From NCBI RefSeq assembly GCF_055900595.2, contig NZ_CM148325.1: a stretch of 64,000 bases of DNA, one strand, 5' to 3'. A model generated the notes under the pieces. It saw only the letters and a program-made list of their open reading frames with translations. It did no database searches and had not been told where the DNA came from. This document shows, in pieces, positions 20,723-59,988 of the stretch. The position numbers and the translations under genes were made by a program. How positions within the stretch are numbered: position 1 is the stretch's first letter; each line of letters starts with the position of its first letter.

Positions 20723-20920
20723 ATGTCAGAAACTATTACGGTGAATTGCCCAACCTGCGGGAAAACGGTGGTGTGGGGTGAAATCAGCCCGTTTCGGCCA
20801 TTTTGTTCCAAACGTTGCCAGCTGATCGACCTCGGAGAATGGGCTGCTGAAGAAAAGCGAATCCCCAGCAGTGGCGATCTTTCCGAAAGCGATGACTGGA
20901 GCGAAGAGCCAAAGCAGTGA
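20723..20920 (+). CDS. yacG: DNA gyrase inhibitor YacG (zinc finger)
   Basis: ORF track 65 aa; CPTCGK...CSKRC zinc-binding motif; AAGGAG SD. Confidence 0.9.
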
Positions 20921-20927
20921 CATTTTA

Positions 20928-21125
20928 TCTGATGCGACGCTGGCCTGATAAGACGCGGGCAGCGTCGCATCAGGCATCGTGTGCAAATGTCGGATGCGGC
21001 GGGAACGCCTTATCCGACCTACAAGACCTTACATATCAACGTGTTAAAATTGTAGATGCTGATAAGACGCGCCAGCGTCGCATCGGGCATCTTGTGCAAA
21101 TGTTGGATGCGGCATAAACGCCTAT
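20928..21125. repeat. REP/BIME cluster (several REP-like palindromic units)
   Basis: Repeated units CTGATGCGACGCTGGC...GCCAGCGTCGCATCAGGC and GGATGCGGCG..AACGCCTTATCCGACCTAC between yacG and mutT; overlaps the last mutT codons. Confidence 0.75.
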
Positions 21126-21520
21126 CCGACATACACACGCTTAAGCTTCGCAAGTACCGGTTCATTGGCTGGCGGAAAATCATCGGCATTCAGACCGACC
21201 AGCGACATCCACTCACCGGGTTGCCCTTCTTTACCCCACGGCTCCCCTTCCCAGCTTTCGACCAGCCAGAACCACAGTGTTATATGCCTGTCCGGGAATT
21301 CATATTCCAGTTTTTCAAATAGCGAATAATGTTGTGGGGTAATCCCGACTTCTTCCTGAAGTTCACGCACCACCGCCTGTTCCGGCGTTTCGCCCATTTC
21401 AATTTTACCGCCAGGAAACTCCAGTTTATTCGCCATGTGCGCATCTGCGGCGCGACGGGTTATAAAGATTTCATTGTTCTCGTTGCGAATAATACCTACC
21501 GCAATTTGCAGCTTTTTCAT
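21122..21520 (-). CDS. mutT: 8-oxo-dGTP diphosphatase (Nudix hydrolase) MutT
   Basis: ORF track 132 aa; Nudix box GGKIEMGETPEQAVVRELQEEVG. Confidence 0.9.
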   Translation of the reverse strand: MKKLQIAVGIIRNENNEIFITRRAADAHMANKLEFPGGKIEMGETPEQAVVRELQEEVGITPQHYSLFEKLEYEFPDRHITLWFWLVESWEGEPWGKEGQPGEWMSLVGLNADDFPPANEPVLAKLKRVYVG

Positions 21521-21532
21521 TGTCTTAAACCT

Positions 21533-21562
21533 ATAAAAAAGGCGCAGAATCCTGCGCCTTTT
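21533..21562 (-). terminator. intrinsic terminator in the 59-nt secA-mutT gap
   Basis: On the minus strand: GGCGCAG - loop - CTGCGCC followed by TTTTTTATAGG (plus-strand A6 at 21535-21540). Confidence 0.65.
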
Positions 21563-21579
21563 ACTTCAACTGTTAGCTT

Positions 21580-24285
21580 TTATTGCAGGCGACCGTGGCA
21601 CTGCTTGTATTTTTTACCAGAACCGCACGGACAAGGATCATTACGTCCAACTTTGCGTTCACCGGTTTGTGCCGCCAGTGCAGCTGCGGCTGCAGAGTCG
21701 TCATCCTGATGGCTAAGCTGCTGCATTTGCGCTAAACGCTCGGCTTCCATACGACGCTGTTGTTCCAGCTCCTCAACCTCTTCAGGCATACGTACCTGGA
21801 CTTTGCTCAGCGTGCTGATGACTTCATATTTCAGCGACTCCAGCATCGCTGCAAACATGGAGAACGATTCACGTTTGTATTCCTGCTTCGGATCTTTCTG
21901 TGCATAGCCACGCAGGTGGATACCTTGACGCAGATAATCCATCGCCGCCAGGTGCTCTTTCCACAGGGAGTCAAGCGTTTGCAGCATGACGCCTTTCTCG
22001 AAGTGACGCATCATCTCAGCGCCAACCACTTCTTCTTTACGCTGATACACTTCGATGGACTGCGCCAGAATACGCTCACGCAGCGTCTCTTCATGCAGTT
22101 CTGGCTCTTTGTCCAGCCACTCGGCAATCGGCAAATCGAGGTCGAAATCGTTCTTCAGACGTTCCTGCAGCCCCGGAATATCCCACATTTCTTCCAGCGA
22201 CTGCGGCGGAATGTAGGCATCGATGGTCGCTTTGAACACATCTTCACGAATGCTGTTGATGGTATCGCTCACATCGCTGACATCCAGCAGTTCATTACGC
22301 TGGGAATAAATAGCGCGACGCTGATCGTTAGCCACGTCATCATATTCCAGCAGTTGCTTACGAATATCGAAGTTACGGCTTTCAACTTTACGCTGAGCGT
22401 TGGCAATCGCTTTTGTCACCCACGGGTGCTCGATGGCTTCGCCTGGTTTCATACCCAGTTTACGCATCATGCCGGAAACACGGTCAGAAGCAAAAATACG
22501 CATCAGCGCATCTTCCATCGACAGGTAGAAACGGGAAGAACCGGCATCCCCCTGGCGCCCAGAACGACCGCGTAACTGGTTATCGATACGACGAGATTCG
22601 TGACGTTCTGTACCGATGATATGCAGACCACCTGCAGCCAGTACCGCATCGTGACGCACCTGCCAGTCGGCTTTGATTTTTTCAATTTGCTCTGCGGTCG
22701 GATTTTCCAGCGCGGCAACTTCTGCCTGCCAGCTACCACCGAGCACAATATCTGTACCACGACCCGCCATGTTAGTCGCGATAGTCACCGCCGCCGGATA
22801 ACCCGCTTGTGCAACAATCGCTGCTTCGTTAGCGTGGAATTTGGCGTTCAGAACGTTGTGTTTGATACCGGCTTTGGTCAGTTCGTTTGACACCAGCTCA
22901 GATTTTTCGATGGAGATAGTACCCACCAGCACCGGCTGGCCTTTCGCAGTACGTTCTTTGATATCTTCAATGATCGCCTGAATTTTTTCCGCTTCAGTCA
23001 TGTAGACCAGGTCCGGCAGATCTTTACGAATCATTGGACGGTTGGTCGGAACAACGACGGTATCCAGCTTATAGATGGAGCTGAATTCGAAAGCTTCGGT
23101 ATCAGCAGTACCGGTCATCCCCGCCAGTTTTTCATACAGACGGAAGTAGTTCTGGAAGGTGATCGACGCCAGCGTCTGGTTTTCGTTCTGGATCTGTACA
23201 CCTTCTTTCGCTTCCACTGCCTGATGCAGGCCATCGGACCAACGACGTCCCTGCATGGTACGACCGGTGTGTTCGTCAACGATGATAACTTCACCATCTT
23301 TAACGATGTAGTCGACGTCTCGGGTAAACAGCGCATGAGCGCGCAGCGCCGCCGTTACGTGGTGCATCAGCATGATGTTGGCCGGAGAGTACAGAGACTC
23401 CCCTTCATCCATGATGCCTTCTTTCACCAGCAGTTCTTCAATCAGCACCAGACCACGTTCGGTCAGGTTCACCTGGCGAGATTTTTCGTCCACCGAGAAG
23501 TGGCCTTCGCCCTGGAAGGTTTCGGAGTCTTCTTTTTCCTGACGGATCAGGTGCGGAATAATTTTATTCACGCGTTTATACATTTCCGAGCTGTCTTCTG
23601 CCGGGCCGGAAATGATCAGCGGTGTACGCGCTTCATCGATCAGGATGGAGTCCACTTCGTCCACCAGCGCATAGTGCAGTTTACGCTGTACACGTTCTTC
23701 AGGGCTGAACGCCATGTTATCGCGCAGGTAGTCAAAGCCGTATTCGTTGTTCGTACCGTAAGTGATGTCAGCTGCGTAAGCTTCACGCTTCGCCGGTGCT
23801 GGCATACCCGGCAGGTTGATACCGACTGTCAGGCCGAGGAATTCAAACAGCGGACGGTTGTTTTCGGCGTCACGTTGCGCCAGGTAGTCGTTGACGGTAA
23901 CAACGTGTACGCCCTTACCGGTTAATGCGTTCAGGTAAGCAGGCAGCGTTGCGGTCAGGGTTTTACCTTCACCGGTACGCATTTCCGCGATGCAGCGTTC
24001 GTTAAGAACCATACCGCCGAGTAACTGAACGTCGAAGTGACGCATACCAAAGACGCGCTTACTTGCCTCACGCACTACAGCGAAAGCTTCTGGGATCAGA
24101 TTTTCCAGCACTTCGCCTTTTTCCAGACGTGCACGAAACTCTGCAGTTTTCCCTTTAAGTTCTTCGTCGGAGAGTTTTTCCATCTCCGGTTCCATGGCAT
24201 TGATAATGTTGACGACTTTGCGCATCCGGCGCAGGGTGCGATCGTTACGACTACCGAAAACTTTAGTTAATAATTTGATTAGCAT
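21580..24285 (-). CDS. secA: preprotein translocase ATPase SecA
   Basis: ORF track 901 aa; Walker [10 protein letters not shown]-terminal zinc finger [14 protein letters not shown]. Confidence 0.95.
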
Positions 24286-59114: not shown

Positions 59115-59210
<96 letters not shown>

Positions 59211-59223
59211 CACAGACTATCCC

Positions 59224-59988
59224 CTAAACCCCAACCACTTTCCGCAAAATATCGATATATACCGGCATCAACGGGTGGCGAATTAACACCACCAGCGCCA
59301 CCACGCCGATGGCAGAAATCAACGGTGTCAACCACAACAAATGACCGCGCGACAAATAATGACTTAAACGATCAGTTACCTTGCCGCTGCGCCATAACCG
59401 CCAACACAGCCAGCCGCCAACCCACAAAAACACCGCTGTTGCCAGCAGCAACCACTTAAATTCACCGCTCTGCATCCCGGCAGGAATATCGATCGCCGCA
59501 CCCGCCAGAATCCCCGGCAGGAAGTAAAACGGAGGCCATAACAGGCAGCCGATAATATTTGGCGTAATAAATTTCGCCACCGGGAGATCCAACATTCCCG
59601 CCACCATTGGCACCAGCGGACGCGTCGGGCCGACAAAACGACCGACCAGAATGGTAAACATGCTGTGTTGATGCAACGCATGTTCAGTTTTATCGAGTAA
59701 TGCTTTGTTCTTCTTCAGAAATGACCAGCGATGCAACGGCTTTTTAAAACGCCAGCCCAGCCAGAAGGAGATCCAGTCGCCCAGCAGGCAACCGACGATC
59801 CCTGCCAGCCAGGCGTGCCAGAAACTTAACTCGCCGCTGCCAATCAGCGCCCCCAGTCCCGCCATTAGCACCGTACCGGGTAAAATCAAACCGACCAGCG
59901 CCAGCGACTCCAGAAAGGCCACCAACACCACCGCCATCAATGAATACACGGTGGATTGGGTAATAAAGTGTTCCAGCAATGCTTGCAT
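59224..59988 (-). CDS. yabI: DedA-family inner membrane protein
   Basis: ORF track 254 aa; multi-TM DedA/SNARE-associated pattern. Confidence 0.88.
   Translation of the reverse strand: MQALLEHFITQSTVYSLMAVVLVAFLESLALVGLILPGTVLMAGLGALIGSGELSFWHAWLAGIVGCLLGDWISFWLGWRFKKPLHRWSFLKKNKALLDKTEHALHQHSMFTILVGRFVGPTRPLVPMVAGMLDLPVAKFITPNIIGCLLWPPFYFLPGILAGAAIDIPAGMQSGEFKWLLLATAVFLWVGGWLCWRLWRSGKVTDRLSHYLSRGHLLWLTPLISAIGVVALVVLIRHPLMPVYIDILRKVVGV

Follow-up and report, generated by a model that had tools for sequence, protein, structure and literature searches.

The 132-residue end of MutT, a common polymorphism of Escherichia coli with its stop codon inside a REP element

The mutT gene of Escherichia coli, whose product has 129 residues in strain K-12, terminates three codons later, within a REP element, in the stretch of 64,000 nucleotides that we have analysed (the window), and this 132-residue end is a common lineage-level polymorphism of the species, already held in databases. 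Very probably, we are dealing with an old array of REP units of the BIME-2 type, variable in copy number, beside which the stop codon was lost through linked substitutions, so that termination falls in the first REP: a common polymorphism and not a rearrangement of the repeat. The position of the mutT stop is in this respect an ordinary feature, and the BIME located between mutT and yacG has long been known in K-12; a literature search on mutT together with BIME found no relevant paper.

The mutT gene and its neighbours

The features at the end of the gene are the following:

21122..21520, minus strand: mutT coding sequence (8-oxo-dGTP diphosphatase), 132 amino acids and a stop, from the open reading frame list and NCBIfam
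21122..21133, minus strand: codons 130-132 and the stop (TAT GTC GGA TAG), all within the REP unit named Y1 below, from allele alignments
20723..20920, plus strand: yacG (DNA gyrase inhibitor), convergent with mutT, from NCBIfam NF001638 (130 bits) and RefSeq annotation

The protein encoded by this minus-strand reading frame ends ...PVLAKLKRVYVG (KLKRVYVG-TAG), with the TAG stop at 21124-21122. Two equivalog profiles recognize it as MutT well above their cutoffs, NF008044 of NCBIfam with 243.2 bits (cutoff 148) and TIGR00586 with 225.6 bits (cutoff 97.9); both span residues 1-129, leaving the tail of three residues outside the model. The mutT DNA of the window is identical to the RefSeq mutT of strain Z0117EC0005 (WP_000736034.1), and a stretch of 1,401 bp is 100% identical to the RefSeq chromosome of that strain. 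The plus strand carries coaE, zapD and yacG and the minus strand secA and mutT, which is the gene arrangement of E. coli K-12 at 108-112 kb; the BIME is the 3' region common to mutT and yacG.

On the other side of mutT, the Rfam family STnc40 (RF02057, a Salmonella small RNA candidate) matches positions 21535-21600 on the minus strand with 69.9 bits (gathering score 45). This match sits in the 3' end of secA and in the spacer between secA and mutT, and its 5' end is clipped by the search boundary.

The REP array between mutT and yacG

The gap between yacG and mutT (20921-21121, 201 bp) contains four REP units of alternating orientation and a partial arm. Listed from the mutT side, its components are:

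21102..21134, minus strand: REP Y1, the mutT-proximal palindromic unit GTATGTCGGATAGGCGTTTATGCCGCATCCAAC, from inverted-repeat and fold analysis
21089..21101, minus strand: 13-nt linker ATTTGCACAAGAT, from Y1 to Z1
21052..21088, minus strand: REP Z1 (a Z2-type unit) GCCCGATGCGACGCTGGCGCGTCTTATCAGCATCTAC, resembling the published REP query GCCTGATGCGACGCTGGCGCGTCTTATCAGGCCTACG (PMC11208160)
21023..21051, minus strand: spacer of 29 nt between the two Y-Z pairs
20989..21022, minus strand: REP Y2 GTAGGTCGGATAAGGCGTTCCCGCCGCATCCGAC
20976..20988, minus strand: linker from Y2 to Z2
20942..20975, minus strand: REP Z2 GCCTGATGCGACGCTGCCCGCGTCTTATCAGGCC, an exact match to the core pattern and, together with Y2, above the gathering score of Rfam naRNA4
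20929..20941, minus strand: partial REP arm AGCGTCGCATCAG, pairing with the 5' arm of Z2 (inverted repeat)

The four units match the REP consensus GCC(G/T)GATGCG(G/A)CG(C/T)...(G/A)CG(C/T)CTTATC(C/A)GGCCTAC (PMC12306157, PMC11208160), of which Y1 and Z1 are degenerate versions; Y1 has a deletion of 1 nt in GGATAAGG and a C.A mismatch in its stem. The set formed by a Y unit, a linker and a Z unit makes up a direct repeat of 113 nt, and this alternation of Y and Z2 units, with short linkers, tandem repetition and a copy number that varies, is the layout of BIME-2. At least 188 bp of the array are intergenic, while 13 nt of Y1 (21122-21134) lie inside the mutT reading frame. Since the proximal match to naRNA4 starts at 21131 and Y1 reaches 21134, the last three codons (130-132) and the stop consist of REP sequence.

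The naRNA4 family of Rfam (RF02564), which is derived from BIMEs, matches the distal pair (20942-21019, minus strand) with 73.5 bits, which exceeds the gathering score of 59.5, and the proximal pair (21057-21131, minus strand) with 50.7 bits, below that score. As in naRNA4, the REP325 BIME-2, a 77-nt unit made of Y, linker and Z2 thus fits the covariance model in its distal copy, while the proximal copy departs from it; naRNA4 is a nucleoid-associated RNA, and it is through a sequence model that the mutT-yacG locus is likened to it.

Such elements are dispersed in the window, as expected from REPs and BIME-2: the core pattern is matched five times in the 64 kb, against 0.41 matches expected, and none of 100 shuffles reached five. 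Among these matches is a second BIME, at 59119-59205, composed of one Y-type and one Z2-type REP between two convergent reading frames. Its start is 8 nt beyond the stop codon 59109-59111, and some 18 nt lie between its end and the stop of the minus-strand reading frame at 59224, which illustrates how often REPs sit near stop codons.

Two linked substitutions at the stop

In K-12 MG1655, mutT has 390 nt and encodes 129 residues ending KLKRL, as the earlier note on this DNA stated, and all 23 entries for E. coli MutT in the PDB are of this form. That note was also right that the window protein is three residues longer, 132 against 129, and that its last codons and stop lie in a REP unit; it had extended the overlap to 21150, which proves too far, as the overlap ends at about 21134-21135, and bases 21136-21150 are normal mutT coding sequence.

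The end of the K-12 gene reads CGT CTG TAG|GTCAGATAAGGCG..., its TAG directly adjoining the REP stem, whereas that of the window reads CGT GTG TAT GTC GGA TAG|GCG.... Codons 130-132 are therefore an extension relative to K-12, opened by TAT where K-12 has TAG. Two linked substitutions distinguish the sequences, CTG TAG becoming GTG TAT, where the C to G change gives L129V and the G to T change turns the stop into tyrosine. The REP starts at the same base in the alignment of K-12 with the window, and when ST2747, CPww7, O157:H7 and MS20655 are aligned with these two, the REP junction is again the same and the stop differs only by TAG against TAT or TAC. In the window, termination makes use of the TA(A/G) inside the conserved REP motif GGATA(A)GG. 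The 1-nt deletion in the REP changes TAA into TAG, and it leaves the position of the stop unchanged, because both fall in the same codon. The read-through alleles continue, after codon 128, as follows:

O157:H7: GTG TAT GTC GGA TAA, end VYVG
ST2747: GTG TAC GTC GGA TAG, end VYVG
MS20655 / Nissle type: GTG TAT GCC GGA TAA, end VYAG
R11 type: GTG TAT GTC GAA TAA, end VYVE
CNR85I8 type: GTA TAT GTC GGA TAG, end VYVG

In every allele observed the extension is limited to three codons. Like ordinary stop-loss alleles with short C-terminal extensions, the mutT allele involves a change in the third position of a stop codon and a run to the next stop; it differs from them in that its backup stop is part of a conserved REP consensus (GGATAAGG).

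The BIME of K-12 (NC_000913.3, 111434-111648) shares with that of the window its locus, its convergent neighbours, the two Y-linker-Z2 pairs, here in a gap of 215 bp, and the base, after codon 129/130, at which the first REP begins. It differs by TAG at codon 130 and a protein of 129 residues, where the window has TAT and a stop three codons further on, within the REP arm; about 10% of the bases of the array differ as well, and so does the spacer between the pairs.

The sequence TGTAG also stands ahead of the distal Y2 copy and resembles a REP tail; Y2 retains the GTAG tail, which in the proximal copy of K-12 is the stop. Gene conversion from Y2 was considered as a source of the CTG-TAG of K-12 and rejected, as the bases ahead of Y2, CTTGTAG or TTTTGTAG, would have yielded TTG and not CTG. 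Template switching at a quasi-palindrome was likewise considered for GTG TAT and found unsupported: the reverse complement of the downstream arm gives GTGCAAATGTCGG, not GTGTATGTCGG.

Frequency in the population

To count the alleles, 5,426 complete E. coli genomes were searched with 30-mers centred on codon 130. Since megablast requires an exact 28-mer, each 30-mer query counts one allele; no genome was matched by a query at more than one place, and the matches with a listed feature fell in mutT. The counts were:

TAG stop, K-12 type: 1,780 genomes
TAG stop, CPww7 type (including HUSEC2011): 1,370 genomes
TAG stop, minor allele (guessed, AAG with GTCAGA): 2 genomes
Read-through, O157 type: 334 genomes
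Read-through, window type: 119 genomes
Read-through, Nissle type: 355 genomes
Read-through, ST2747 type: 113 genomes
Read-through, R11 type: 567 genomes
Read-through, EP91A type: 208 genomes
Read-through, CNR85I8 type: 137 genomes

Alleles with the TAG stop thus account for 3,152 of the 5,426 genomes (58%) and read-through alleles, which include those of O157:H7 and Nissle 1917, for at least 1,833 (34%), with 441 (8%) unclassified. RefSeq annotates a mutT of 399 nt in the read-through strains.

Copy number of the REP pairs

The number of REP pairs varies among strains, with gaps of about 87-100, 201-215 or 331 bp for one, two and three pairs, respectively. A single pair (87-100 bp) is found both in CPww7, with its protein of 129 residues, and in O157:H7, with 132; two pairs are found in K-12 (129) as well as in the window (132), and three in E. 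coli 1217KP (331 bp). Each end being seen with one and with two pairs, the extension comes from a point change of the stop and not from a rearrangement of REPs, and copy number was accordingly discarded as its cause.

Elsewhere in the genus the array can be longer: E. albertii, Escherichia sp. E1V33 and SCPM-O-B-8794 have three Y-Z pairs or at least four, and many E. coli have one. In E. coli 7_12_30A (NZ_CP074845.1, locus 1-875), the mutT-yacG BIME carries IS621, a member of the IS110 family, within a Z2-type REP, directly after ...CTTATCAGGCCT. The published natural target of IS621 is ATCAGGCCTAC (PMC11208160), and the site used in 7_12_30A matches it. The array of the window strain has ATCAGGCCAGC and ATCAGCATCTAC, and contains no perfect IS621 target.

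The end of mutT in other species

A scan of species-representative genomes provided five outgroups: E. albertii, E. whittamii, Escherichia sp. MOD1-EC7003, Escherichia sp. E1V33 and the divergent SCPM-O-B-8794. In all five, MutT has 129 residues and codon 130 is TAG or TAA, immediately followed on its 3' side by GTCGGATAAGGCG... and then by two to at least four Y-Z pairs; three of the five have CGT CTG TAG, as K-12 does. Since the stop of all five is codon 130 and adjoins the same REP, we take both the array and the codon-130 stop as ancestral for the genus.

Within E. coli the picture is less simple. A neighbour-joining tree of 384 nt of mutT, built on 25 variable sites, without support values and ignoring recombination, nests the 129-residue E. 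coli alleles in those of 132 residues, with the window allele basal. Given this nesting, the K-12-like TAG may have been regained, brought in from outside or preserved as an old polymorphism, instead of being simply retained; for the CTG-TAG allele, regain, import and retention are each possible.

The mutT-proximal REP of K-12 (GTCAGATAAGGCGTTTTCGCC...ATTCGCACACG, locus 635-700) is near-identical to that of Escherichia sp. E1V33 and unlike those of other E. coli alleles, while the MutT proteins of K-12 and E1V33 are only about 89% identical. As judged from the sequences, this likeness may be due to exchange between species or to a polymorphism of long standing at the end of the gene.

Further away, the MutT of Salmonella has 131 residues and ends ...KLRQFAH, and no REP was found there at the position matching the end of the E. 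coli gene. In Citrobacter species, REPs lie a few bases further downstream or overlap the gene in other registers. A different conserved palindrome, GCCTGCTAAGCGAAGCGCCAGCAGGC, adjoins or contains the mutT stop at 15 loci of Enterobacter, Leclercia and Lelliottia; in some species TAG stands immediately ahead of it, and in others GCC TGC TAA lies within its 5' arm, giving a protein that ends ...KAC. With these cases, a mutT stop embedded in a downstream hairpin recurs across genera.

Hairpin energies and possible effects on expression

The whole region of 236 nt is predicted to fold with -97.5 kcal/mol, much more stably than shuffled controls (z = -5.6). A scan for intrinsic terminators predicted no terminator-like site in the mutT-yacG gap, which leaves the BIME as the sole structured element separating mutT and yacG. 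BIMEs bind DNA gyrase and Pol I, and protection of mRNA 3' ends is known for the family, according to the background section of PMC1525189. By analogy, we infer that the REP hairpins may shield the 3' ends of the mutT and yacG transcripts.

The proximal hairpin itself is of uneven strength. For Y1, predictions give -14.9 kcal/mol in the window against -23.6 in the O157 allele, and in its 66-nt context the window hairpin has z = -1.2; it has decayed, to a predicted -11 to -15 kcal/mol, in the window strain and in several others. Both substitutions of CTG TAG to GTG TAT add pairs with the downstream linker AUUUGCAC, and between otherwise matching alleles the predicted stem goes from -20.5 to -23.6 kcal/mol, a gain of about 3 kcal/mol for the longer stem.

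REPs located at most 15 nt from a stop are reported to stall ribosomes and lower translation, for example in nrdAB (Liang, Rudd and Deutscher 2015, Mol Cell 58:431, as summarised in PMC12306157). The mutT gene falls within this distance in both allele classes: 0 nt separate the stop from the REP in K-12-type alleles, and the window allele has its stop in the 5' arm of the REP. The class described by Liang et al. (2015) is further marked by ribosome stalling, mRNA cleavage and a tmRNA-dependent reduction of the upstream protein; for mutT, stalling, cleavage and tmRNA tagging would be predictions. By analogy, the REPs could dampen mutT translation in both classes, and a REP-dependent stalling effect on MutT dosage is possible; the proximal hairpin being weak in the window, any such effect may be small. 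One may go further and imagine that the extent of stalling is set by stem strength together with the position of the stop, which abuts the REP or lies 9 nt inside it, that TAG and TAT lineages make different amounts of MutT, and that the substitutions were selected. We hold this chain of suppositions to be very improbable; were it true, the two types of lineage would differ slightly in their baseline rate of A:T to C:G mutation.

Competing explanations

The earlier note saw the extension as created by the REP junction, in a small strain-level remodelling of the gene end. Understood in this way, an insertion, a deletion or a change in copy number of REPs would have made a new gene-repeat junction and with it a new end of mutT. 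The number of pairs does vary, as comparison of the 3' ends with K-12 and other strains brought out, and one strain has IS621 in its array, but copy number is unlinked to the position of the stop: 129- and 132-residue ends both occur with one and two pairs, the stop differs by a base substitution alone, and the junction lies at the same nucleotide in K-12, in all sampled E. coli and in the five other Escherichia. We give such an origin hardly any credence. Nor does the remodelling belong to one strain: K-12 does lack the 132-residue end, as the note supposed, but many others have it, with read-through in at least 1,833 of the 5,426 complete genomes and the 399-nt gene in RefSeq. These numbers also weigh against an error of sequencing or assembly, an idea that may come to mind since repeats are error-prone and the allele has a 1-nt deletion in GGATAAGG; with the identical 30-mer present in 119 complete genomes, and 1,401 bp identical to an independent RefSeq chromosome, it can be set aside almost entirely.

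More serious is the possibility that 132 residues are ancestral in E. coli, the K-12-like end being secondary, by back-mutation or, more plausibly, by import of CTG-TAG through recombination. The gene tree speaks for it, in that 129-residue alleles fall inside those of 132 residues, and the basal window allele has outgroup states; so does the presence of read-through in O157:H7 and Nissle 1917. These two lineages we take to belong to phylogroups E and B2, branching outside A and B1, where the K-12-like strains with 129 residues presumably belong. The similarity of the K-12 proximal REP (GTCAGATAAGGC.TTTTCGCC...ATTCGCACACG) to that of E1V33 would further hint at exchange between species. Yet the stop at codon 130 in five of five non-coli Escherichia makes simple retention possible too, and the tree has its few variable sites, its missing support values and its disregard of recombination; we find this history quite possible, short of adopting it. 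It is also conceivable that the shift of the stop was selected, a stop placed 9 nt into a longer REP stem tuning MutT through stalling and trans-translation, or through mRNA stability. The linked substitutions do lengthen the predicted stem (by the difference between -20.5 and -23.6 kcal/mol), and REPs at most 15 nt from a stop are reported to lower translation (PMC12306157, citing Liang et al. 2015). But in the 129-residue alleles, too, the stop adjoins the REP, so that both classes are within the 15 nt, and the proximal hairpin has decayed in the window strain and several others; selection of this kind appears improbable.

Significance

We come back to stop loss beside an old array. The anatomy of the array, the substitutions, their frequency in the population and the outgroup states are direct observations, and a very probable sequence of events can be built on them. 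An old, genus-wide REP array of the BIME-2 type fills the mutT-yacG gap, its first REP starting at the end of mutT. Codon 130 is TAG, abutting the REP stem, in K-12-like alleles; with the change of CTG TAG to GTG TAT, L129 becomes valine and the stop is lost. The ribosome would then continue through GTC GGA, in the 5' arm of the REP, until it met the TA(A/G) of GGATA(A)GG, releasing a product of 132 residues ending VYVG.

The three residues added beyond the solved 129-residue form are likely, we infer, to be functionally neutral. The tail varies among lineages (VYVG, VYAG, VYVE), and this variation fits weak constraint.

The conserved REP motif GGATAAGG can be understood as a built-in backup stop, such that a mutation of the stop beside the REP costs only three residues. 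The 129-residue MutT of K-12, that of all solved structures, is consequently not the sole common natural form of the enzyme. Should REP-dependent stalling act at mutT, the amount of this antimutator enzyme could depend on the allele.
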